Shown: piece by piece, positions 3,577 to 64,000 of the stretch
Position numbering within the stretch: position 1 is the first letter of the stretch
Layout of the letters: each line of letters begins with the position of its first letter
Assembly: GCA_035299485.1 (NCBI GenBank)
Contig: DATGWM010000014.1
Location: forward strand, 160,370 to 224,369
Direction: 5' to 3'
Length of the DNA stretch: 64,000 nt
Origin: Fluviicola sp.
GTDB lineage: Bacteria > Bacteroidota > Bacteroidia > Flavobacteriales_D > Crocinitomicaceae
Translations under genes and position numbers: made by a program
The notes under the pieces: model-generated
Told to the model about the DNA's origin: nothing
The model's input: only the letters and a program-made list of their open reading frames with translations
Database searches by the model: none

Positions 3577-4200
3577 TCACTTTTTTTCGAGGAGGAACCA
3601 GGTAATATCGTCTTGCGGAAAAGCAGGATCTTTGCGGTAAGCAAATCCGTAATCCACCAGCTGCAAATCGCTGTACTTTTCGAGTAATTCGCCTGCAAAA
3701 TCGCGTTTGAACAAGCGTTCTTCGTGACCGCGGTAATTCAATGCCACCGGACTTGGATTATAGTATTCTGCCACAAGAATATAACGCGTTGATGCCTGGT
3801 ACAGTTTTTCGTATACAACAGGCAGCATTTCCGGGTTGATGTGGATGAGCACGCCTTTGATCAGGGACAATTCGGCGTGCTGCGTAAAACTGCTGTCGAA
3901 AACAGATCCGTGAACTACATTGGAATCGCCAATAAGTCCTTTCAATTCCGTTGCCGCCTGCTCGTTGATCTCAATTCCGGTTAATTGAATACCGGGGTAG
4001 AGCAAACGCAGCGCCTTGAGGTTCATTCCGATGTTGGCACCAAATTCCAGGCAGGAGTTTACTTTCCCTGCCCGTTGCAGCGCTTTGGAGAAAAAATGGA
4101 GGTTCGACGCCAATAGCTGGTCACCCTGGTTTCGTCCTATGTAGTCATTTCCAAATTCGTTCGCCCAAAATGCTTCCTGGGCCGTTTTGTATTCCTGCAT
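3577..4200 (-). CDS. Pseudaminic acid biosynthesis-associated methylase
   Basis: FWANEFGNDYIGRN, LEFGANIGMNL SAM-binding motif, KGVLIHINP, FKRDFAGE, DDITWFL. Confidence 0.85.
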   Translation of the reverse strand: MQEYKTAQEAFWANEFGNDYIGRNQGDQLLASNLHFFSKALQRAGKVNSCLEFGANIGMNLKALRLLYPGIQLTGIEINEQAATELKGLIGDSNVVHGSVFDSSFTQHAELSLIKGVLIHINPEMLPVVYEKLYQASTRYILVAEYYNPSPVALNYRGHEERLFKRDFAGELLEKYSDLQLVDYGFAYRKDPAFPQDDITWFLLEKK

Positions 4201-4203
4201 AAC

Positions 4204-4884
4204 TTATTCTAATCTGCTTTTATACTTCAATTCGGCAAGTTTCCAGTCTGTTGGCGTGTCAATATCCTGCACGTCCATTTCAGACAGCACCACCATACCG
4301 CTGTTCGCTGTAAATATACTATCTTTTAGTTTGTCGGGCCTTAGCCAGTACCATTGGCCTGCGTCGTGATAAACCGGTTTCAGGTCCTGTGTCCTGACGG
4401 TTTTATTTTCGGGCCAGATCATGCCTGCCTTCCCATCCCGCAACTCAAAACCACGCCAGATCGGATGGCCGTAAGCAACAGCAGCAAACACACTGTCAAA
4501 CTGCTTTTGTTCCAATAGCTGTAAGCCTTCTGACAGGTGAGTTGTGGTCATCAGCGGAGCGGTGGGATAAATGCAGCAGACTACGTCAAAAATGCGGCCA
4601 TCCTGTTGATAACAGTTAAGCACTTCTTCAATTACCTGTAATGTTGTGGCATGATCATCTGAGTTGACAGCACTGCGAAAAAAGGGCACAGTGGCTCCTG
4701 CTCCGCTTGCAATGGCCGCAATTCCCTCATCGTCGGTCGACACCATGACTTCATCAAACAAGCCGGAATCGAGTGCCGTTCGAATCACGTAAGTGATCAT
4801 CGGCTTCCCCAAAAAGGGCCGAATGTTTTTGTGCGGAATACGCTTGCTTCCACCTCTTGCAGGGATGATGGCCAGCCTACTCAT
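4204..4884 (-). CDS. pseF: Pseudaminic acid cytidylyltransferase
   Basis: AIIPARGGSKRIPHKNIRPF, VSTDD, YHDAGQWY, QDIDTPTDW; start moved to the Met at 4884. Confidence 0.9.
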   Translation of the reverse strand: MSRLAIIPARGGSKRIPHKNIRPFLGKPMITYVIRTALDSGLFDEVMVSTDDEGIAAIASGAGATVPFFRSAVNSDDHATTLQVIEEVLNCYQQDGRIFDVVCCIYPTAPLMTTTHLSEGLQLLEQKQFDSVFAAVAYGHPIWRGFELRDGKAGMIWPENKTVRTQDLKPVYHDAGQWYWLRPDKLKDSIFTANSGMVVLSEMDVQDIDTPTDWKLAELKYKSRLE

Positions 4885-6049
4885 AATAGGATTTAACGGT
4901 TTGAATGACAAATTGCTGTTCCTCCTCCGTCAACGTCGGGTACATGGGCAGGCTGATGCATTTTTGATAATAGGCTTCCGCTACCGGTAGTTCTTTTTGT
5001 CCGCCTTTTTTATTGCGGTAATACGGCATCAAATGGCACGGGATGTAATGGATTTGTACGTAAATGCCTTTTGTACGCAAGTAATTGTACAAGCCAAGCC
5101 TGTCGGCTACTTCCAGGATGTACAAGTGATAGGCATGCCCTTCTACCGAGCCGCTTTGACCGTAAACAAACGATTCACCTGCAAAGGCTTCGGCATATCG
5201 CGCGGCAATGGCCCGGCGCTTTTTCAATCCTTCATCGGCACGTGCCAGCTGCGAACGCCCTAAAGCGGCCTGGAAATCGGTTAACCGGTAATTGTATCCC
5301 AATTCCTGCATTTCCATGTACCAGAGCGGAAAATCCTGTTCACCGCCGATAGCTTCGGGTGTATGCTGGAATAATTCGGTATTGCGCGTAATGCCATGCG
5401 TGCGCAGTAAGCACAGGCGATCGTACAAGGCTTTGTCATTTGTGGTAATCATTCCGCCTTCGCCCGCCGCAATGTGCTTTACAGGGTGAAACGAAAAAAC
5501 GGAGCATTCAGCAAAAACGCCGTTCCCGGCATAGTGTTTTGTGCCCGACGAATCGGAAAAATAAGCTCCGGGAGCATGACAGGCATCTTCGATGATCCAC
5601 AGTCCGAATTCATCGGCCAACTGGCGCAGTTGTTCCATGTCGACCATTCTTCCGGCAAATTGCACCGGGATAATGCCTTTGATGCTTTTATCGGCAAGCA
5701 GCTGTTGGCGCAATACAGTCAGATCAAGCAGGTACGTTTCGGGGTCGATATCCGAAAACACGGCTTCAGCGCCACAATATTCCACACAATTTGCACTGGC
5801 GGCAAAGGTAATCGGGGTTGTGATCACTTTCTGGCCTGCTTCCACTCCGAGCGCCATCGCTGCAAGATGCAATGCTGCCGTTCCGTTGGCAACTGCAACA
5901 GCGTAGGCAGCGCCCGTATAGGCGGCAAATGCCGTTTCGAATTCCCGGATTTCAGGCCCTTGCGTCAGGTAATCGGAACGCAGCACACGCACCGTCGCCT
6001 CGATATCGGCATCCGTTATTTCCTGCTTTCCGTAAGGAATGATTTTCAT
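4877..6049 (-). CDS. pseC: UDP-4-amino-4,6-dideoxy-N-acetyl-beta-L-altrosamine transaminase (DegT family)
   Basis: IPYGKQEI, LTQGP, IIEDACHA, FSFHPVKH PLP-lysine motif, GEGGMITT, LGYNYRLTDFQAALG. Confidence 0.9.
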   Translation of the reverse strand: MKIIPYGKQEITDADIEATVRVLRSDYLTQGPEIREFETAFAAYTGAAYAVAVANGTAALHLAAMALGVEAGQKVITTPITFAASANCVEYCGAEAVFSDIDPETYLLDLTVLRQQLLADKSIKGIIPVQFAGRMVDMEQLRQLADEFGLWIIEDACHAPGAYFSDSSGTKHYAGNGVFAECSVFSFHPVKHIAAGEGGMITTNDKALYDRLCLLRTHGITRNTELFQHTPEAIGGEQDFPLWYMEMQELGYNYRLTDFQAALGRSQLARADEGLKKRRAIAARYAEAFAGESFVYGQSGSVEGHAYHLYILEVADRLGLYNYLRTKGIYVQIHYIPCHLMPYYRNKKGGQKELPVAEAYYQKCISLPMYPTLTEEEQQFVIQTVKSYYE

Positions 6050-55291: not shown

Positions 55292-55636
55292 TTAGTTAAC
55301 TGCTTTTGGTGTCAGGACTAAGAACCCGTTCATTTCAATTTCCGTACTGAAGCGTTTTTCACCGGCTTTGGTTTCGTATGTCTTGTTGACCAATCGGCCT
55401 TCAACGATCACCTCGGTGCCCTTCTTCAGTAATTTCTCCACATTCTCCACCTGTTTCCCCCAGGCAACAACGTTGTGCCATTGCGTGTTCTCGATCCACT
55501 CGCCGTTTTTGTCTTTGTATGGTTCACGGGTCGCAATACTCATTTTAGCCACTTGTGTTCCCGATTGGAATTTTGTGATTTCAGGTTCTCTTCCCAGGCG
55601 ACCGATCAAGCTTACTTTGTTACGTAATGTGTTCAT
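55292..55636 (-). CDS. ssb: Single-stranded DNA-binding protein paralog 1 (OB fold only)
   Basis: NKVSLIGRLGREPE, SIAT, TQWHNVVAWG, KKGTEVIVEGRL, TEI. Confidence 0.9.
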   Translation of the reverse strand: MNTLRNKVSLIGRLGREPEITKFQSGTQVAKMSIATREPYKDKNGEWIENTQWHNVVAWGKQVENVEKLLKKGTEVIVEGRLVNKTYETKAGEKRFSTEIEMNGFLVLTPKAVN

Positions 55637-55847
55637 AATGTTTGTGTTTTAAACGTTTGTAAATAATTTGTTTTGTTGCGATCAGTCCTTGTAACTGATT
55701 GACGATGCAAAGTTGTAGCGGCCTGAAAACCGGATTCGGTTAAAATTCAATTACTGTCGATTATTTTTCGTTTGTAAACGGTTATTATCGTTTTTAATAT
55801 TGATTAACAGTATATTGTATTTAAAAATAATGTCCGATACAAAAGAA

Positions 55848-55885
55848 AATGAAACAGATGATAGAAGATAATGAAACAGATGCTT
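55848..55885 (+). repeat. Tandem 13-bp direct repeat AATGAAACAGATG (period 22), motif copies 2 and 3
   Basis: Copies at 55848-55860 and 55870-55882; the second extends to the 16-bp match with 54498-54513. Confidence 0.8.
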
Positions 55886-56044
55886 TTTACTATTTCAACC
55901 TATAGTGGAGTGAACAATTTTGAAAGACAATTCGGAGAGTTTTATGGGAATTATCCGCTATTTCCTTTACAAATTACTAGTAAATATCCCATTGCCGAAT
56001 TAATAGAAGCTCAAGAACTTTGTAGAAATTAAAAAACAAATTTT

Positions 56045-56389
56045 ATGTCATTTACACCAAAAGCCGAGCTACTCTATAAAGATGGCTCAAACCCAAAACA
56101 TTACTGCATTGCAGCTTCATTTGTTGAAACGGCAAATTACGGATTCGTAACTGCCTCCGAAGTACAAGATCATCCAGAAGAAGAAGATGGATATCTCGTT
56201 ACATACACTGTTGGCGACAATTCAAGAGGGGGTGATGAAATGGATGCTGATCTTGGAACCATTACCTTGGTCACAAGCACAGGATTCGTTGACGTTGAAT
56301 TTTACGATGAGCAATCTCATTTTTTAGGTAAAAAGCGTATCCGTACTGAAGAAGCACAAAAAGATACTAGACCAATTGAAGAGCGCTAA
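56045..56389 (+). CDS. Small acidic hypothetical protein
   Basis: 114-aa ORF with an A-rich translation initiation region and its own terminator; no signal peptide; charged tail GKKRIRTEEAQKDTRPIEER. Confidence 0.7.
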   Translation: MSFTPKAELLYKDGSNPKHYCIAASFVETANYGFVTASEVQDHPEEEDGYLVTYTVGDNSRGGDEMDADLGTITLVTSTGFVDVEFYDEQSHFLGKKRIRTEEAQKDTRPIEER

Positions 56390-56397
56390 TTTAGTGC

Positions 56398-56430
56398 AGC
56401 AGCAGAATTAAAAAATTCTGCTGCTTTTTT
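56398..56430 (+). terminator. Terminator between the small gene and the kinase
   Basis: Perfect 12-bp stem AGCAGCAGAATT/AATTCTGCTGCT followed by TTTTT. Confidence 0.85.
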
Positions 56431-56461
56431 GTACTTTGTGATGCCTAAGCGCTATAGCACT

Positions 56462-58543
56462 ATGAAAATCGTATTATTATTTCTTTCATTGATATGTGGT
56501 TTTTGTTTCGGACAAGAGACAGATGAACTGTCTTCGAAATTCAAGCATACAAATCAAGATCGTTTAAAGATGGCTTATGCATCTGAGCTTGCATGGAAAT
56601 TGCGAGATCAAAATCCAGATTCATCACTCTTTTATGCAAAAATTGCTCTACAATTATCTAAAAAATTGGGCGACAAAAAAACAGAAGCGTATAGCCTTTC
56701 TGACATTGGAACTTATTACAAACACCAAGAGCACTATACAGAAGCTCAAAAGTATTTTAAGAAAAGCTTACGTATTCGAAAAACCATTGGCGAGAATAAC
56801 GATATTGCCAGTGGTTATAATCAATTAGGACTATTATTCCGTCAACAGGAACAATACGATTCCGCAGTAGTCTATTTTCGAAAAGGAATCGACCTACTAC
56901 CTCATGAAAAATCCACTTTAAAATCCAATTTATTAGATGGATACGGCATGAGCCTACTTAATTTGGGGCAGTACAAACATGCATTACACTATATTCAACA
57001 ATCGTTGAAAATTGCAGAAGAATTGGAAGATTCTCTTTCCATAGCCAAATCACATCAAAATCTTGGAGTAATATATGTGAAACAGGGAGTTGCCAAATTG
57101 GCCTTGACAGAATTCAAATCAGCGGAACAGCTTTTTTCGATATTGAAGAATCAAAATGGGCTTTTGGAATCAATCATAAATCAAGCTTCGATCAATCAGC
57201 AACTAGGAAAGATCATAAATGCTGACAAAATGTACCAAAAAGCGGAACTGCTTAGTATTAAACACGGATTTCAAGATAACCTTCCTACCATATGGTTCAA
57301 TCGAGCAGAATTATTTTTAGAAAGTGACCCAAAAAAATCCATTTATTTCTATAAGAAAGCCTTAAAAAATGCTACTTCGTATGAAAAGCCTTTACTTAAA
57401 ACCGAATGTTTACTAGGGCTGATGGACGCATCAATTCGAGCAGACCAATTAAATGCTACGAAACAATGGAAATTACAGTTAGAAGAACAACCTCAACTTA
57501 ATCGCACAGCCATAAGAAAAGATTTCCTCGAATTATGCGTAAAATATTATCGCAAATCAGGAGACCTTGAGTCAGCTTTCAGATATAGCCAGGATTTATT
57601 AAAGGTCCGAGATAGTTTAGATAAGATCGTACTAAACAACCTTGAAACACTCTCTCTTCTTGAAAAATCACGAAACAAGGAAAAAATTGCTCGGGAAGAA
57701 ATAAATCGGCTGAAAGTAATAAAACAATCAGAAGAAGATCAGTCTCAAATGTGGTTTTTAACAATGGGAATAATCATGATACTCCTAATCGTTTCATTAA
57801 TCACGTTTTTCTTGATTTATAAAATCAGATTGGATAATAAGAATGCTGTCCTCAGGGAACAAGAGTTACAGCAAGAAATGACCGATTTAATTCATGAATC
57901 AGACCTTCGTGTAATGGAGGAGTCATTGTTAGTTGAAGGTAAAACCCGCAAAAACATTGGAAAAGATTTACACGATAATTTAGGTAGCAAGTTAGCCGTT
58001 GTACAAATCATGTTGGATTCTTTCCGCAGAAAAACAGAAGAATCTCGAATGGATCTTCAAGAAAAACTAGTAAAAGCAATTCAACTAATAGAAGACTCCT
58101 GTAATGACCTTAGGACCATATCAAGAAACATGGTTAATACAGGGATAAGTGAAACCAGTTTAGCAGACAGTGTCGACACCCTATGCCGATTCATATCTGA
58201 AAATTCGCAAATAGAGATAGTCTTTCACTATGAAAATGATATTGTTTTACAAGAAATGCATTGGCGAAAGAACATTTTATCCACCATTTCTTTGCTTTTA
58301 CACAACATTATTAAACATTCAGATGCATCCAAAGCAGAAATCACTCTATTAGGTGATGAAACACAACTTTCTATCATAATCAAAGACAATGGTAAAGGTT
58401 TCGACACAAATAAACTAGACCAAGTTGAAGGTGTCGGACTGCGAAATGCGAGAGAAAGAGTCGAAATAATGAAAGGCACAATTCAAATGACATCCGAAAA
58501 AGGAAGTGGAACCAATATACTCATACAATTACCCTCAAAATGA
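56462..58543 (+). CDS. TPR-containing sensor histidine kinase (HisKA_3/NarX type)
   Basis: Signal sequence, multiple TPRs (IASGYNQLG, IAKSHQNLG), TM helix, GKDLHDNLGS H-box, NIIKHSDA, IKDNGKGF, GVGL, GSGT. Confidence 0.92.
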   Translation: MKIVLLFLSLICGFCFGQETDELSSKFKHTNQDRLKMAYASELAWKLRDQNPDSSLFYAKIALQLSKKLGDKKTEAYSLSDIGTYYKHQEHYTEAQKYFKKSLRIRKTIGENNDIASGYNQLGLLFRQQEQYDSAVVYFRKGIDLLPHEKSTLKSNLLDGYGMSLLNLGQYKHALHYIQQSLKIAEELEDSLSIAKSHQNLGVIYVKQGVAKLALTEFKSAEQLFSILKNQNGLLESIINQASINQQLGKIINADKMYQKAELLSIKHGFQDNLPTIWFNRAELFLESDPKKSIYFYKKALKNATSYEKPLLKTECLLGLMDASIRADQLNATKQWKLQLEEQPQLNRTAIRKDFLELCVKYYRKSGDLESAFRYSQDLLKVRDSLDKIVLNNLETLSLLEKSRNKEKIAREEINRLKVIKQSEEDQSQMWFLTMGIIMILLIVSLITFFLIYKIRLDNKNAVLREQELQQEMTDLIHESDLRVMEESLLVEGKTRKNIGKDLHDNLGSKLAVVQIMLDSFRRKTEESRMDLQEKLVKAIQLIEDSCNDLRTISRNMVNTGISETSLADSVDTLCRFISENSQIEIVFHYENDIVLQEMHWRKNILSTISLLLHNIIKHSDASKAEITLLGDETQLSIIIKDNGKGFDTNKLDQVEGVGLRNARERVEIMKGTIQMTSEKGSGTNILIQLPSK

Positions 58544-59214
58544 TTAAACAAAAACCCTCTGTATTTATAGCAGACGATCACCAGATCGTAATTGACGCCA
58601 TTCGTTCCGAACTAGAAGATTTCGGAGAATCACTTCATTATTTGGGGAGTGCTACAAACGGTAAAGATGTTATTGATGTACTGAACCAGAAAAAGATTGA
58701 CCTCTTGATACTTGACATTAGTATGCCAGAACCTGATGGTCTTGAAATACTTCAGTACATTAAAGAGAACGGTATCAGAGTAAAAGTGCTTGTGTTAACA
58801 ATGCACGATGATCTCGCTCATGTTTCTGCAATGATGCGTCATGGCGCACATGGCTACATACTCAAGAATGAAGGTGCGCGATACGTTGTTGATGCAGTTA
58901 GCCATATTCTCGCTGGCAACAACTATTTTCCTAATGAAATATTGCAAAAATTGGCTGATGGTTTTGCTTCTGACTACTTTTCTATAAGTGATACTCCTGA
59001 AGAAAAAATCCGGAAATCAATTTCTGACGATGATGCACAGGTATTGGAATTATTAACCCTTGAGTATACCTCTAAGGAGATTGCGGATAAGATGAATGTT
59101 ACTAAGAAAGCTATAGATGCACGATTGAAGAAATTACGTGATAAAACCGGAACAACATCTGAAAAAGGATTGGTGGCTTTTGCTGTTCGAAACGGTTTTT
59201 CAGCAAAAGGATAA
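58540..59214 (+). CDS. NarL/LuxR family response regulator
   Basis: IADDHQIV, LILDISMPEPDG, VLTMH, GAHGYILK, C-terminal HTH TSKEIADKM; ATGA overlap with the kinase. Confidence 0.93.
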   Translation: MIKQKPSVFIADDHQIVIDAIRSELEDFGESLHYLGSATNGKDVIDVLNQKKIDLLILDISMPEPDGLEILQYIKENGIRVKVLVLTMHDDLAHVSAMMRHGAHGYILKNEGARYVVDAVSHILAGNNYFPNEILQKLADGFASDYFSISDTPEEKIRKSISDDDAQVLELLTLEYTSKEIADKMNVTKKAIDARLKKLRDKTGTTSEKGLVAFAVRNGFSAKG

Positions 59215-59343
59215 TACAAGAATTTTAGTAAAAATCCCCTGAATCAATCTGCTTATTGAGTAAAAATACCAATAATTCATCATCTCATTTTTTATCATAG
59301 ACCGAGCCACTAACATTGTCTTGAAAATTTAAAAACCAAGTCA

Positions 59344-60297
59344 ATGTCAATGTATGAAAAAAGAAAAGCTCTTCTAATTGGAGTTAATGAATATGATTAT
59401 TACAATCGATTAAAAGGTTGTGAGAATGATGTTAGGATGATGGAAGAGGTCCTACAATGTCATGAGAAGGGAGATCCAAATTTCTCTATTTCCAAAGTTC
59501 TCAACGAGACTAACGATCACATAAAATCAGAAATCATCACACTTCTTAAAAGAGATGCAACGATGGCTCTTTTATACTTTTCTGGCCATGGAAACGTAAC
59601 TGATGAGGGTGGATTTATTTGTGGTCGAGACGTCTCAAAAGAAAACTCAGGAGTTTCGATGGATTGGATTATTGAGCAAATCAATAAATCTATTATTCCT
59701 GAAATTACTGTAATTCTTGATTGTTGCTTTGCTGGTGAAATAGCAAATGAAGAAACTGATGGTACTGTTTTCACAAGACTTAGAAAGGGTGTTACGATAC
59801 TTGCAGCGACCACAGAAAATGATACTGCTACAGAATTTTTGCGGAAAGGTGTATTCACTTCAATCCTTTATAACGGATTAAAAGGAGCGGCAAAGGACAT
59901 ATTGGGACATGTAACTGCTGTAAGTCTTTATAGCAACTCAGAATCTATACTTTCCCCATGGGAACAACGCCCTGTCTTTAAGTCATTTGTGAAGCAATTA
60001 ACACCCTTACGTTTTTGTCTACCAACGGTAAGAAAACGAATCCTTCGTCAAATGGTTCATGAACCATATTTTTCATCCAAAGAGAAATTAATTTCTCTTG
60101 ATTCCAAACTGTTAAAAGATGAATTCGGAACAATTGGCCAAGAAGAATTATACGCACTCGCTTCATTTGAAAAAGCTGGACTCCTAGAGTGTCCTGATAG
60201 AATCCCATTATTACAAGCAATTATTGAAAATAAAACCTGTGGATTATCTCCTTTCGGTAAACATGTTTGGGAGCTTTTCAGCAAAAGAAATATCTAA
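59344..60297 (+). CDS. Caspase-like (peptidase C14) protease
   Basis: RKALLIGVNEY, LKGCENDV, YFSGHG (His82), ILDCCFAG (Cys128), GVFT; about 80-aa C-terminal extension. Confidence 0.9.
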   Translation: MSMYEKRKALLIGVNEYDYYNRLKGCENDVRMMEEVLQCHEKGDPNFSISKVLNETNDHIKSEIITLLKRDATMALLYFSGHGNVTDEGGFICGRDVSKENSGVSMDWIIEQINKSIIPEITVILDCCFAGEIANEETDGTVFTRLRKGVTILAATTENDTATEFLRKGVFTSILYNGLKGAAKDILGHVTAVSLYSNSESILSPWEQRPVFKSFVKQLTPLRFCLPTVRKRILRQMVHEPYFSSKEKLISLDSKLLKDEFGTIGQEELYALASFEKAGLLECPDRIPLLQAIIENKTCGLSPFGKHVWELFSKRNI

Positions 60298-60316
60298 TCA
60301 ACTAAAAGCAAATTAA

Positions 60317-61330
60317 ATGAGCTCATACAGCAATAAAAGCACTTTACATGTACGAATTAAAAATTTTGTATCATGGATTGCTCCTCCAAAAGAAACTCGT
60401 GAGGCCATCAAAAAAAGATCCGACGAAGTAAGAGAGAAAATTAAAGCCGAAGCCGAAAAAGATGGAATAACCATTTCTCAAATGCCATATTCGGGCTCGT
60501 TTTCAACAAAGACTGGTTTAAGGCGCAATATGCGTGGAAATACGATTTTAGATGGTCAAGATGTTGACATACCATTTGTAGTTAAAAAAGATACTGAAAC
60601 AGAATTTGGTCCATTAATCAAACGATTTAAAAAGTATGCCCAGACTTGTTATCCAAACCATGAAATTGAAGAAACAAAAAGTTCCGTTAACATCGTATTC
60701 GAAAAAGACAATCTAACATTCGACATTGTTCCTATGTTCGAAGCAGATAAAGCTTCTTATCAAACATTAATTAGGGGCAACGGTGAGATAATTACAACCT
60801 CCATTGAAAAACATCGGGAATTTATTCGCAATCGTACTAAAGAAACAAAAGAATCTGATGGTATTGTAACATTCAATGACTGTATACGGTTACTGAAGTG
60901 GTGGAGAAGAGTAAAAGAAATTGAATGTGATGAAAACCTTTGCTTACCTAGTTTCTTAATCAATCTTCTCGGGGCACAAGCATATAACAATTGTAGTGAT
61001 GATACTACATACCCCCAGACATTAGCAAATTGGTTTTCATTCCTGGCAAGTACTGTCAGAAAAAAAGAAACTATTTGGTTTGACGACTATTACTCCAAAC
61101 CTGAACCTGACGAATATAAATCTTGGAATGTAATAGATCCAGTCATGCCTGGTAACAACATCGTCAAATCATGGCCAGGATATCAAGTCGATCAATTGGC
61201 AGATTGGCTACAAGAAGCTGCAGAAACTATGAACAGAGCAATTGTTGCTGACATGCAGGAACGTCACGCAGATAGCCTTGTCCATTTACAGCAATTATTC
61301 GGAACCATATTCTCTTCCCATTGCGATTAA
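60317..61330 (+). CDS. cdnC: CBASS CD-NTase, CdnC-like oligonucleotide cyclase
   Basis: SGSFSTKTGL, DVD, FDIVP catalytic motifs; TSIEKHREFI, RLLKWW, PSF, IDPV.P.NN match E. coli CdnC as I recall it. Confidence 0.9.
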   Translation: MSSYSNKSTLHVRIKNFVSWIAPPKETREAIKKRSDEVREKIKAEAEKDGITISQMPYSGSFSTKTGLRRNMRGNTILDGQDVDIPFVVKKDTETEFGPLIKRFKKYAQTCYPNHEIEETKSSVNIVFEKDNLTFDIVPMFEADKASYQTLIRGNGEIITTSIEKHREFIRNRTKETKESDGIVTFNDCIRLLKWWRRVKEIECDENLCLPSFLINLLGAQAYNNCSDDTTYPQTLANWFSFLASTVRKKETIWFDDYYSKPEPDEYKSWNVIDPVMPGNNIVKSWPGYQVDQLADWLQEAAETMNRAIVADMQERHADSLVHLQQLFGTIFSSHCD

Positions 61331-61346
61331 TCCTAATAAATAAATT

Positions 61347-61829
61347 ATGAGTGTATACACATTTAGCGGAACGGACAGTTATTCCGAGGCCGATGTAAAA
61401 GCCGTTATGCAAAATACCTATGAGGATATTATTGGGTTTGCGAATCGAAAGACGATAAGCTATGGTACAGCAGAATTGTGGATAGAAGAATTAACCTATG
61501 CTTTGAATAGAAAAATCGTCAAATTCTTTGAAGTCCAGTTGAAAAATCCTTCTGGTGAAATTTTCAAGAGTCATAGATATCATGTTGACTCCTATGGCTA
61601 TTTGTCCTCCGGATCATCATCCGGAGGAATAAACTACCATTCCTATCCTTCTGATACCACTGCTAGTTTATACATAGATTTTTTAGATAGTCTTTCCAAA
61701 AGCGATATCGATGAAATAATTAGAGATCGAGGTTGGGGAACAGGCTCTGCAATGAAAGGTAATGAGATTCACGACCGAAATTACGTAAGCAATAATTTGA
61801 GAATACAACGAACGGAAATAACAAAATAA
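61347..61829 (+). CDS. cap7: Bacterial HORMA domain protein
   Basis: 160 aa between the CD-NTase and the AAA ATPase; N-terminal YTFS.T.SYS and C-terminal DRNY...RIQRT resemble bacterial HORMA1. Confidence 0.8.
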   Translation: MSVYTFSGTDSYSEADVKAVMQNTYEDIIGFANRKTISYGTAELWIEELTYALNRKIVKFFEVQLKNPSGEIFKSHRYHVDSYGYLSSGSSSGGINYHSYPSDTTASLYIDFLDSLSKSDIDEIIRDRGWGTGSAMKGNEIHDRNYVSNNLRIQRTEITK

Positions 61830-61831
61830 CC

Positions 61832-62722
61832 ATGGAAGTTAAATTACAAGAACAGAAACATCCCAACAAAGCAGCGGAGTTAGCTTTTGATGAATTAATC
61901 GCTATTGACGGACAGAAAGAGATTTTACTTAATTCACTCGAACTGTTCTTCCATAAGGAGAAGATTGAACGATGGCGCCAACACCATCATTCAAGTGGAT
62001 TAAACTTCTTGAGTCACCTTAACAACGGAACTTCATTGATCATTTTATCCGGAGATGTTGGTTGCGGTAAGACAGCGCTTGCTCATTCCATTGGTACACC
62101 ACTTGGAAAACGAATTGATAAACGAATCACTGTTTTCGAAACACCGTCAAATATACGGGGAGCGGGTAGAGTCGGAGAAATATCGAATCGCATCACTGAT
62201 GCTTTTGAACAAGTCAAATCCAAATTAACATCCGACCAGACAGGAATTCTGATTATAGATGAGGCTGATGATCTTGCAACAGATCGTGATCAGAATCAGG
62301 CACATCATGAAGATCGCGCAGGACTTAATGTTCTGCTTAAACAGATCGATTTAATTGCACGAGAAAATGTTGCACTAGCCGTTATTCTGATAACGAACCG
62401 TCTTAAAGTACTAGATCCAGCTATTATACGTCGAGCCACTCAAATAATTGAGTTTGGAAGACCTGATGAAGCTGCAAGAAAATTGGTTTTCCAACATATG
62501 TTTAACGGTTCAGATTTGTCCGAAAAGGATTACGATGAACTTGTTAAAGCCAGCACTCATCCCAAAACACCTTATAGCTTTTCTGATCTTATTCAAAAGG
62601 TTGGAAGGCAATCATTATTTAGTGCGATTCAAAGTGATCAACCATTCGGTAAAGACATCTACCTGACAACGATAAAGAATACGAAACCCTCACCAATTCT
62701 GAAACAAGATGAAAACAGATAA
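61832..62722 (+). CDS. cap6: TRIP13/Pch2-like AAA+ ATPase
   Basis: GDVGCGKT Walker A, RGAGRVGE, IIDEADDL Walker B, HHEDR, TNRL.VLDPAI.RR. Confidence 0.92.
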   Translation: MEVKLQEQKHPNKAAELAFDELIAIDGQKEILLNSLELFFHKEKIERWRQHHHSSGLNFLSHLNNGTSLIILSGDVGCGKTALAHSIGTPLGKRIDKRITVFETPSNIRGAGRVGEISNRITDAFEQVKSKLTSDQTGILIIDEADDLATDRDQNQAHHEDRAGLNVLLKQIDLIARENVALAVILITNRLKVLDPAIIRRATQIIEFGRPDEAARKLVFQHMFNGSDLSEKDYDELVKASTHPKTPYSFSDLIQKVGRQSLFSAIQSDQPFGKDIYLTTIKNTKPSPILKQDENR

Positions 62723-64000
62723 GTCAACAATTGTCATCGCTCACTACGGCTTGGACAGAAGAATCACAAGAGAAGAATGTCTGGCGACTCTAGCACCAGG
62801 AGAAAAAGAGGGAGCTATTTTCATCGATTTTGAAGCTGGTAATGCTAAGCTCAGCGAACTTTATGAGTTATCGTTTGATAATATAGCACTATTCCAACAG
62901 CGCAAATTTGCTGAATTAGTGAAGCCTAAGCTAGATGAGTATCCGGATGCAAGAATTGCATATTTTGGATATGTTCCAATCCCTATTGCATTTCACTTCG
63001 GTTACCTACTTGGCAATACGCATCCCTACACAATTTACCAGCTCCACCATAAAACCAATAAGTGGTATAAGGAAACTCAAAAGCCATCCGAAGACTATGT
63101 GTTTTCAATACAACCATTACTACTCCCGACTGAAAATCAAAAAGGAAAAGGTGAGGTTGTTATCCGTGTGGGAACTTCTTTCGAAATTGACACACAGTCA
63201 ACGTATGAAGTTATTTCCAATCCTGAAAACGAATTTGACATTAGCCTAACCCAACCGCATGTAGACTCCTTATATGATCAGAAGAACATATCAGATGTAG
63301 TTGAAGCCTTTCAGGAGGTTTTAAATGCATATGCGAATAAATTGAGTGACCGGGAGAAAATTCATTTGTTTATTGCCTCTTCGTGTGGACTGCCATTTGC
63401 TTTAGGGACCAGGATTAATCCGAACATTTATCCATATATACAGACTTATCAATTTAGCAGAAATGAATCACCAAAATATAAAGAGGCTGTTCTAGTTACA
63501 AAGGAAGTCGATGATCGTATTATTCTTTCCGAAAGCGATCGACTGATTGCAAAAGGCATCCGGGACAAATGGTATGACCAGCTGGAAAACGGATTGAAGC
63601 CATTTATAGAGACAATCGCAGGGAAAAAATCGGACAATTGGTTACAAATGCTATGTACTGACGAAGAGTACCAAACCGTCAGTCAACATCTATGTCACCC
63701 TTGGAATTCCGTTACGGATATAAACAAAACCAGTCTTAAACATGATTCCATTGACACAGAAAGAGTGGATGTTGATGATAGCTTTGAATACATTGAGAAA
63801 ACAAATACTTGGCTTCTCGATGATGGATTTTTGTTTGGACTGAGCAATAGACTCAACAAAAAGCCAGAAACGGATGTTATGCAGGCAGCTCGATTGTTTT
63901 TCTTCCATGAGGCCCTTCACTACAGCATTGAAGGACATCGATTAACTAGAGAAATCGCCAACGGTATTGGCCAATTTCCAAAGGTTATAGAAGAAGCCGA
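62709..64000 (+). CDS. SAVED domain fused to a C-terminal HExxH putative metallopeptidase (partial, runs off right edge)
   Basis: Not in ORF track; 430 codons without a stop. SAVED motifs IAYFGYVPIPIAFHFGYLL and IHLFIASSCGLPFALGTRIN; FFFHEALHY (HEALH at 63906-63920) followed by KVIEEAD. Confidence 0.85.
   Translation, partial: MKTDKSTIVIAHYGLDRRITREECLATLAPGEKEGAIFIDFEAGNAKLSELYELSFDNIALFQQRKFAELVKPKLDEYPDARIAYFGYVPIPIAFHFGYLLGNTHPYTIYQLHHKTNKWYKETQKPSEDYVFSIQPLLLPTENQKGKGEVVIRVGTSFEIDTQSTYEVISNPENEFDISLTQPHVDSLYDQKNISDVVEAFQEVLNAYANKLSDREKIHLFIASSCGLPFALGTRINPNIYPYIQTYQFSRNESPKYKEAVLVTKEVDDRIILSESDRLIAKGIRDKWYDQLENGLKPFIETIAGKKSDNWLQMLCTDEEYQTVSQHLCHPWNSVTDINKTSLKHDSIDTERVDVDDSFEYIEKTNTWLLDDGFLFGLSNRLNKKPETDVMQAARLFFFHEALHYSIEGHRLTREIANGIGQFPKVIEEA

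Follow-up and report, generated by a model that had tools for sequence, protein, structure and literature searches.

A type III CBASS operon in a Fluviicola-like genome joins a SAVED-HExxH effector to a caspase of the type IV Thoeris family

Why would a defence operon that already encodes one putative protease effector carry the gene of a second protease at its head? This question is raised by a locus at the end of a 64,000-nt stretch of Fluviicola sp. DNA (G000:C14:160370-224369; 'the window' hereafter, with positions counted from its first nucleotide). The locus was initially annotated as a type III CBASS, an anti-phage signalling system based on cyclic oligonucleotides, in which a metallopeptidase gated by a SAVED domain might activate a caspase. 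We analysed its parts, their linkage in other genomes and the ways in which the two proteases might work together. The identity of the parts and the conservation of their linkage can be stated with high confidence.

The operon consists of five co-oriented open reading frames (ORFs) on the forward strand. They code for a caspase (59344-60297, 317 aa), a CD-NTase (60317-61330, 337 aa), a HORMA protein (61347-61829, 160 aa), TRIP13 (61832-62722, 296 aa) and a SAVED-HExxH effector (62709-64000 in the window). The first four genes are separated by gaps of 19, 16 and 2 nt, and the last two overlap by 14 nt. The initial annotation had described five tightly coupled genes with these distances, and the ORF coordinates match it exactly; the domain assignments are far beyond chance and the motifs are intact. 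The window holds the first 430 of the 596 residues of the effector, the 3' end of the gene being open at the window edge. The gene passes this edge by 499 nt and ends at the window-equivalent position 64499. A type II CBASS follows, and the suspicion that further genes lie past the window was thus correct.

Profile searches identified the three core proteins. The cyclase matched the PADLOC Cyclase model PDLC00791 (E = 5e-121) and the NCBIfam model CBASS_cyclase_a (NF041116; 266 bits for a cut-off of 200), and its GS...DVD motif is intact. The HORMA protein is of the single-HORMA type (bacHORMA_1, E = 2e-20) and shares 55-66% identity with those of eight collinear relatives. The TRIP13/Pch2-like AAA+ ATPase (PADLOC PDLC00914, E = 2e-91) has intact Walker A (GDVGCGKT) and Walker B (ILIIDE) motifs. 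The locus thus combines the hallmarks of type III CBASS, namely an intact CD-NTase, HORMA and TRIP13 genes in the same operon and an effector with a cyclic-oligonucleotide sensor domain. As judged from its sequence, it is near certain to be a complete type III CBASS with a CD-NTase, one HORMA protein, TRIP13 and a SAVED effector, and its predicted function is defence. The initial proposal that a SAVED-HExxH protein stands in the place of the nuclease NucC was correct.

In the effector, the SAVED domain (E = 2e-36 in the profile search) spans residues 64-261 (window 62898-63491). It is followed by a HEALH motif at residues 400-404 (63906-63920) and by E428 (63990-63992), a putative third metal ligand. 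Across 75 representatives of the family, residues H400, E401, H404, E428, D431, Y432 and D435 hardly vary, and the HExxH motif was retained in all 16 intact effectors examined. H400, E401 and H404 together with E428 conform to a gluzincin-like HExxH+E pattern. In the AlphaFold2 (AF2) model of the protein (pLDDT 92.9), the C-terminal domain displays two strands, a helix with the HExxH motif and a helix with the Glu residue, a secondary structure compatible with that of gluzincins. Foldseek matched the N-terminal half of the model to the SAVED domains of Cap5, Cap14, 3TM-SAVED, SAVED-CHAT and CalpL (E ~1e-12 for Cap5, Cap14 and SAVED-CHAT); the whole model was used as the query and gave SAVED matches only. 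For that half, no Pfam match at E <= 10 and no PDB relative were detected, even with a 16-sequence profile. On the basis of the HExxH+E motif and of the PADLOC label described below, 'metallopeptidase' appears to be a reasonable name for this domain.

The effector matched the PADLOC CBASS effector model PDLC00754, 'Peptidase' (5.7e-186, model positions 4-592 of 598). It is thereby assigned to an already catalogued, biochemically uncharacterised class of CBASS effectors and is not new. The PADLOC class is said to derive from the classification published by Millman and colleagues in 2020. When clustered at 50%, the large family has 781 representatives; of these, 142 match with E < 1e-30, mostly with a length between 575 and 620 aa. 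It also serves Cap2/Cap3-type, E2-type and minimal CBASS. In CD-NTase+HORMA+Pch2 operons, proteases had already been counted as putative effectors (Ye et al., bioRxiv 10.1101/694695). We also observed broken copies of the effector gene, with an in-frame stop after residue ~100 in L010 (7998-9797; L numbers designate loci) and matches in several pieces in L069, L077, L079 and L100, which is consistent with the occasional inactivation of a toxic effector.

The first gene of the operon codes for a protein of the Peptidase_C14 family (E = 1e-17, profile search). Its catalytic residues H82 (59587-59589) and C128 (59725-59727) are invariant across 41 members of its family, and only 19 nt separate its gene from that of the cyclase. 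The prediction of a catalytically intact caspase joined to CBASS was therefore sound. The AF2 model (pLDDT 92.6) adopts a caspase/paracaspase fold, and its best Foldseek matches are MALT1 and caspases 11, 9 and 1 (E ~1e-12). The length of the proteins is fixed in the family (~317-323 aa, 140 matches). Their conserved C-terminal domain of ~105 aa yielded no match, and a search for this domain in other architectures returned the same family only.

The caspase is 34-35% identical, over 97-98% of its length, to the TIR-linked members P0056 and P0090. In L024, a Treponema locus with a 34% identical caspase, two ThsB_TIR genes lie 3' of the caspase gene, and in L022, from Enterococcus (35%), a ThsB_TIR-like ORF of 125 aa lies 5' of it. 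Since members of the same family adjoin TIR genes, at 34-35% identity and with the same two-domain layout, we assign the caspase to the type IV Thoeris caspase family. In type IV Thoeris, the TIR product N7-cADPR activates a promiscuous, arginine-specific caspase with the catalytic residue C129, and signal binding has been proposed for the C-terminal domain (Rousset et al., 10.1101/2024.10.24.620036). The same work predicted caspase-like proteases to be CBASS-associated, with no role assigned. In our locus, a profile search of the surrounding genomic island revealed no TIR gene among its ORFs. The polar residues Q208, K213 and R223, conserved family-wide, are kept in the C-terminal domain. Clade-specific insertions or residue switches of note were not seen, nor was an added pro-peptide or loop. 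In L023 (4001-6261), the gene of a distant member of the family (33%) is followed by those of an 8xMP-family protein and of another C14 caspase, unrelated to the first; the locus has no TIR or CBASS genes.

How firmly the caspase is tied to this CBASS depends on the side from which the linkage is viewed. From the caspase side, we collected nine distinct loci, i.e. the window and homologues with 86, 62, 57, 55, 49, 45, 43 and 39% caspase identity. The genes of a ~115-aa protein, a TPR-containing kinase, a LuxR-type regulator and the caspase follow one another in the same order in 9/9 loci; we call these four genes the front module. An effector of the SAVED-HExxH type, 577-596 aa long and with an intact motif, is present in eight of them. 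The order caspase, cyclase, HORMA, TRIP13, effector is found in the window, L014, L018, L019 and L106. In L020 and L021, the effector comes directly after the caspase, with a 7-9-nt gap between the two genes, and is followed by the cyclase, HORMA and TRIP13. Finally, L016/L017 harbours the caspase and the effector only, 4 nt apart, with no dedicated cyclase, HORMA or TRIP13 genes, and adjoins a type II CBASS. Intergenic gaps across the caspase-linked loci range from 4 to 22 nt, and the flanks differ between the nine loci. In the ninth, L105 (8012-13663), the front module is followed by LytTR, VWA, PP2C phosphatase, 752-aa Ser/Thr kinase and DUF4407 genes, with no CBASS; a different cargo system may thus be placed under the same leader. 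The composite locus, made of the front module and a SAVED-HExxH CBASS, is both conserved and rare, and recurs in a limited set of Bacteroidota.

From the effector side, the picture is the opposite. Our effector-selected sample comprised 90 loci, 10 from genomes and 80 from metagenomes, and is therefore mostly metagenomic. A caspase is encoded in only two of them (0/10 genome, 2/80 metagenome loci), and these two records had already been retrieved via the caspase. No further caspase was detected among the 3,491 ORFs of the 80 metagenome loci in a filter-free hidden Markov model search (hmmsearch --max, E <= 10), in which a distant C14 control scored 27 bits. When only complete type III loci whose upstream flank is long enough are counted, 18 in all, the caspase occurs in one. 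As 88 of the 90 loci are devoid of it, the effector cannot depend on the caspase. The initial annotation had held that its proposal would fall if the caspase were rarely linked to this CBASS subtype; the linkage is indeed rare when counted from the effector (2/90), but not when counted from the caspase (8/9).

The ten genome loci, all from Bacteroidota, code for effectors 63-77% identical to that of the window and have neither caspase nor kinase pair. In eight of them, the cyclase, HORMA, TRIP13 and effector genes are collinear with those of the window, at 66-79% identity. Upstream of these caspase-free relatives lies either a WYL/WCX (CapW-like) gene or a divergent module of three genes, the last of which codes for a peptidase of the M78/IrrE-like (CapP-like) kind. 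Neither CapW nor CapH+CapP regulators are present in the window, while both occur in sister loci. The three-gene module, e.g. at 3602-5379 on the reverse strand of L007 and likewise in L008-L012, L025, L029, L036, L037, L047, L049 and L050, codes for proteins of 200-225 aa and 117-145 aa without Pfam match and for the M78/IrrE-like peptidase of 257-267 aa. It exceeds the described CapH+CapP pair by one gene and tracks the effector across cyclase types. Genes coding for ~317-aa proteins 3' of some effectors were considered as other caspases, and turned out to be CD-NTases.

The near absence of the caspase from the effector-selected loci could mean that, in our locus, an unrelated caspase gene or the remnant of a decaying Thoeris system simply happens to lie beside an ordinary CBASS. 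Defence islands do juxtapose unrelated systems, and a type II CBASS lies directly downstream here. We nevertheless consider such a chance neighbourhood very improbable. Nine loci whose flanks differ share the arrangement, over a range of 39-86% caspase identity; both residues of the catalytic dyad are invariant, and the genes are closely spaced throughout. Furthermore, the caspase clade is monophyletic and its upstream genes are always the same, and effector identities of 30-76% argue against copies of one recently spread mobile element.

The tightest partner of the caspase, present in 9/9 loci, is the upstream two-component system, which the initial annotation had left out. The module is headed by a small ORF of 114 aa (56045-56389, forward strand), found in all nine loci of the caspase clade. 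Its product has a conserved C-terminal motif, IRxEEAQQETRPI, and no Pfam or PDB match. We considered that it might be a cryptic TIR protein and rejected this, the hhalign probability against ThsB-type TIRs being 0.1% and PDB and Pfam giving no match. A strong terminator-like hairpin (56398-56425) lies 3' of this ORF. The next gene on the same strand (56429-58543) codes for a sensor histidine kinase with Pfam matches to TPR_12 (7e-27), HisKA_3 (5e-9) and HATPase_c (6e-12). The protein has a signal-like N-terminus, a TPR region, a transmembrane helix (aa 438-469), a HisKA_3 domain with H515 and a HATPase_c domain. The TPR region is probably periplasmic, as the repeats lie between two hydrophobic segments. 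The NarL/LuxR-type response regulator (58540-59214, forward strand; Response_reg 3e-24, GerE 9e-6) has an intact phospho-acceptor Asp motif, DLLILDISMP. It is 83-86% identical to its counterparts in L014/L016 and 40-44% identical to those in L018-L021. The literature searched contained no account of a two-component system upstream of a CBASS, nor of a classical histidine kinase and LuxR regulator as regulators of one.

Between the regulator and caspase genes, an intergenic region of 129 nt (59215-59343, forward strand) represents a candidate regulated promoter. A TAACATTG box at 59311-59318, which precedes the ATG of the caspase gene by 26 nt, is similar to the -7 element of Bacteroidota. The sequence AGTAAAAAT occurs twice without mismatch, at 59227 and 59259 (32 nt apart, spanning 59227-59267), and the two copies are candidate regulator sites. 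When aligned with the corresponding spacers of the other loci, this region shares with them a TAnnaTTG box and a motif of the AGG...CCT type; in several loci, a terminator-like hairpin lies immediately 3' of the regulator gene. A sigma-70 promoter scan was uninformative, as it is for Bacteroidota. The caspase and CBASS genes are probably transcribed together from a promoter in this spacer, as only 19 nt separate the caspase and cyclase genes. We infer the regulatory role of the kinase/regulator pair from its position and conservation only.

What, then, might the caspase do in this operon? In the reading that we favour, the response regulator would drive the promoter 5' of the caspase gene, and the caspase and CBASS genes would be co-expressed. 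Upon infection, the HORMA protein would activate the CD-NTase, and TRIP13 would reset the system. The cyclic oligonucleotide would bind the SAVED domain and switch on the HExxH domain. The caspase would be a second executioner protease, physically or proteolytically coupled to the SAVED-HExxH protein, and most simply activated by it. The direction, from metallopeptidase to caspase, is proposed by analogy with SAVED-CHAT and PCaspase, i.e. with a CBASS-derived module in which a SAVED-fused protease activates a stand-alone caspase (Steens et al., 10.1101/2023.06.23.546230). We put forward the coupling itself, as a type of cascade, as a tentative proposal with a less than even chance of being right. 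It is kept alive by the pairing of the caspase clade with SAVED-HExxH proteins in 8/9 loci, with three effector lineages and in three gene orders. Coupling best explains the specificity for one effector type, the adjacency of the two genes after rearrangement and the maintenance of the pair without a cyclase set. The broader proposal, in which a Thoeris-type caspase has been rewired into a CBASS, is activated by or assembled with the SAVED-metallopeptidase and forms with it a unit under an envelope-sensing two-component system, is possible but rather doubtful.

Alternatively, the caspase might be gated through its own C-terminal domain by the nucleotide of the CD-NTase and act as an effector in parallel with the SAVED-HExxH protein. 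The CD-NTase is the only signal synthase at the locus, since the latter has no TIR gene. The caspase belongs to the same family as the TIR-linked proteins and shares their layout, including the three polar residues of the C-terminal domain, for which signal binding has been proposed (Rousset et al., 10.1101/2024.10.24.620036). However, residues shared with the TIR-linked relatives argue for the same class of ligand rather than for a cyclic oligonucleotide. In addition, L105 is devoid of any nucleotide synthase and L016/L017 of a dedicated one, and gating by the nucleotide does not explain the specificity for SAVED-HExxH partners. For a different composite operon, a test of whether another cyclase cross-activates the Thoeris caspase gave a negative result (PMC13069673). 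We thus regard parallel effectors as unlikely.

Comparisons of the loci gene by gene revealed their mosaic structure. In L014, the caspase and regulator are both 86% identical to those of the window and the effector 76%, with values of 41% for the cyclase and 38% for TRIP13. In the caspase-free loci, from which the caspase and regulator are absent, the effector (71-77%), cyclase (68-77%) and TRIP13 (66-79%) are all similar to those of the window. Identities in L016-L021 are 45-62% for the caspase, 40-83% for the regulator and 30-35% for the effector and, where these genes are present, 39-43% for the cyclase and 40-51% for TRIP13. At the nucleotide level, homology to the caspase-free loci extends exactly from the cyclase ATG (60317) to the end of the effector gene (64487), and that to L014/L016 runs from ~55944, just 5' of the small ORF, through the caspase gene.

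In the caspase tree, the nine kinase-linked caspases form one clade (99, starred) apart from the TIR-linked clade (97, starred). Within it, the eight CBASS-linked caspases make up a subclade, and that of L105 is in the sister subclade. In the effector tree (78 rows), the caspase-linked effectors are found in three starred clades, each nested among caspase-free effectors, which forces at least three gains or losses. The two trees conflict for L016, whose caspase groups with those of the window and L014 and whose effector groups with those of L018 and L019. This conflict implies that an effector cassette was exchanged; what came in its place was once more of the SAVED-HExxH type, never another type of effector. 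Relative to eleven caspase-free sisters, six private substitutions are common to the effectors of the window and L014. Every one of them lies in the HExxH half, and one of the positions, 416, is also altered in the independent L020/L021 clade. Such substitutions may be taken as weak support for coupling and are suggestive only.

A further possibility is that the front module is self-contained and kinase-controlled, as a regulatory leader or as a defence system of its own, and that the CBASS is exchangeable cargo on the same promoter. The two proteases would then be independent, or act in synergy with no cross-activation. The junction between the modules is located exactly at the cyclase ATG, and relatives have CapW-like or CapP-like CBASS regulators in the same position as the front module. 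The kinase and regulator accompany the caspase in all nine loci, L105 carries non-CBASS cargo behind its front module, and the effector family is self-sufficient elsewhere. There is a precedent: in an operon that combines Pycsar with type IV Thoeris, the two act in synergy without cross-activation of the caspase by the cyclase (PMC13069673). CBASS islands with regulators of the envelope type, DdvA/DdvS, are also known (PMC11506125). Nevertheless, exchangeable cargo leaves unexplained that the cargo is a SAVED-HExxH system in 8/9 loci and from three effector lineages, and that the caspase and SAVED genes remain adjacent after reordering or loss of the cyclase set. Moreover, a Thoeris-type caspase without its own signal generator would lack an obvious activator. 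Like the rewiring of the caspase, an independent front module is thus possible, although we hold it as doubtful.

Several points weigh against the coupling of the two proteases. The cassette from cyclase to effector is interchangeable, being 66-79% identical to caspase-free cassettes with homology that starts at the cyclase ATG, and homology-driven recombination could favour swaps between cassettes of the same family. The SAVED-HExxH effectors work without a caspase almost everywhere (88/90 loci), and the kinase pair is a closer partner of the caspase (9/9), with a front module that carries non-CBASS cargo in L105. Those relatives of the caspase that have been characterised are switched on by a small molecule, not by cleavage, and the caspase clade has no added pro-peptide or loop. 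The peptidase assignment of the effector is soft, with the motif and the PADLOC label as its basis and no Pfam or PDB relative. Lastly, the counts are small (8/9) and partly biased, the loci having been found through the caspase.

The operon is, with near certainty, part of a defence island of low GC content in the genome of a Fluviicola-like member of the Bacteroidota. The GC content drops from ~0.46 to ~0.35 near window position 55,500 and recovers ~13 kb further on. The left edge of the island lies at ~55500-55950, and the nucleotide homology to L014/L016 begins at 55943/55944. The island comprises, in this order, the 114-aa ORF, the TPR/HisKA_3 kinase, the LuxR-type regulator, the five-gene operon and a type II CBASS. 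The latter starts 750 nt 3' of the effector, outside of the window; it is independent and complete, with CD-NTase, Cap2 E1/E2, Cap3 JAB and SAVED-HNH nuclease genes (L003 6627-10990, equivalent to window positions 65257-69620). L016/L017 has the same type II CBASS, at 84-86% identity, and a CD-NTase and E2 pair is located directly 3' of the type III set in L021 and L106. A second CBASS thus adjoins four of the nine caspase-linked loci. We also noted a 56-aa ORF (MERKPLGTKAGTGETCPESGIW...) 3' of the effector gene (L003 5962-6132, window-equivalent 64592-64762). L014, L016/L017 and L019 have it in the same position, with 71-84% identity, and none of the caspase-free loci has it. We rejected it as a system-specific partner, as members of its family occur very widely and are highly conserved between phyla (examples come from Chryseobacterium, Bradyrhizobium and others); its only match was a weak one, YjzC-like. 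The best database matches of both the caspase and this small downstream ORF are from Fluviicola taffensis.

The literature lists both the peptidase effectors of CBASS and the caspases associated with it as predicted components, with no role assigned to either. The window locus and its eight relatives offer a compact, conserved and clonable test case, in which a TIR-less caspase, a SAVED-gated HExxH protein and a kinase pair are brought together. It bears on the substrates of SAVED-metallopeptidase effectors, on the activation of caspases by routes other than TIR-made nucleotides and on abortive-infection operons under an extracytoplasmic sensor. If the caspase has been rewired into the CBASS and the unit is under the two-component system, the locus would provide the first demonstrated control of a CBASS by a classical kinase/regulator pair, and also the first case of one effector family whose activation has switched from a small molecule to proteolysis. 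Should the caspase be independent, the front module would represent a new kind of leader cassette for defence cargo.

The effector class was catalogued before, and it is the composite with a Thoeris-type caspase that is apparently an undescribed variant of CBASS. In agreement with the initial annotation, which knew of no such architecture, the literature searched contained no CBASS with both a SAVED-HExxH effector and a Thoeris-type caspase. Its core, gene order and tight coupling are those of type III CBASS with CdnC/CdnD, HORMA, TRIP13/Pch2 and NucC (Ye et al., 10.1101/694695). Unlike those systems, its effector is a SAVED-HExxH protein, its first gene codes for a caspase and a two-component system lies upstream. 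The caspase-free CBASS with PDLC00754 effectors (e.g. L004-L013, L025-L050) share with it the collinear order of cyclase, HORMA, TRIP13 and effector, 66-79% identical, and the same HExxH+E pattern; they differ by their CapW-like (WYL/WCX) or CapP-like (M78) modules and by the lack of caspase and kinase genes. As in CBASS regulated by CapW, CapH+CapP, CapK+CapS or DdvA/DdvS, the last of which senses outside of the cytoplasm (PMC11506125), a regulator module is found directly upstream of the cyclase operon. In our locus, by contrast with these, it is a classical histidine kinase and LuxR regulator pair.

With type IV Thoeris (Rousset et al., 10.1101/2024.10.24.620036), the locus shares the caspase family and its two-domain layout, the catalytic residue being C128 here and C129 in PsCaspase. 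It differs from it in having no TIR gene and in the ties of its caspase clade to the kinase/regulator pair and the SAVED-HExxH CBASS. A SAVED-gated protease is also part of CalpL-CalpT-CalpS (SAVED-Lon, type III CRISPR), where a dedicated protein substrate is encoded nearby, and the SAVED domain of CalpL (9eyj) is a structural match of that of our effector. However, CalpL belongs to another protease class, the output of that system is transcriptional, via an anti-sigma/sigma pair, and no caspase is involved. The PCc-sigma, PCi and PCk partners of the Haliangium type III-B CRISPR/CBASS hybrid are lacking from our locus, its SAVED fusion carries a HExxH rather than a CHAT domain, and its caspase is of the Thoeris IV type. 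Nevertheless, it has in common with the Haliangium system a SAVED-fused protease encoded together with a stand-alone caspase-like protease; the Haliangium module was traced to CBASS and seen adjoining CD-NTase genes (Steens et al., 10.1101/2023.06.23.546230).

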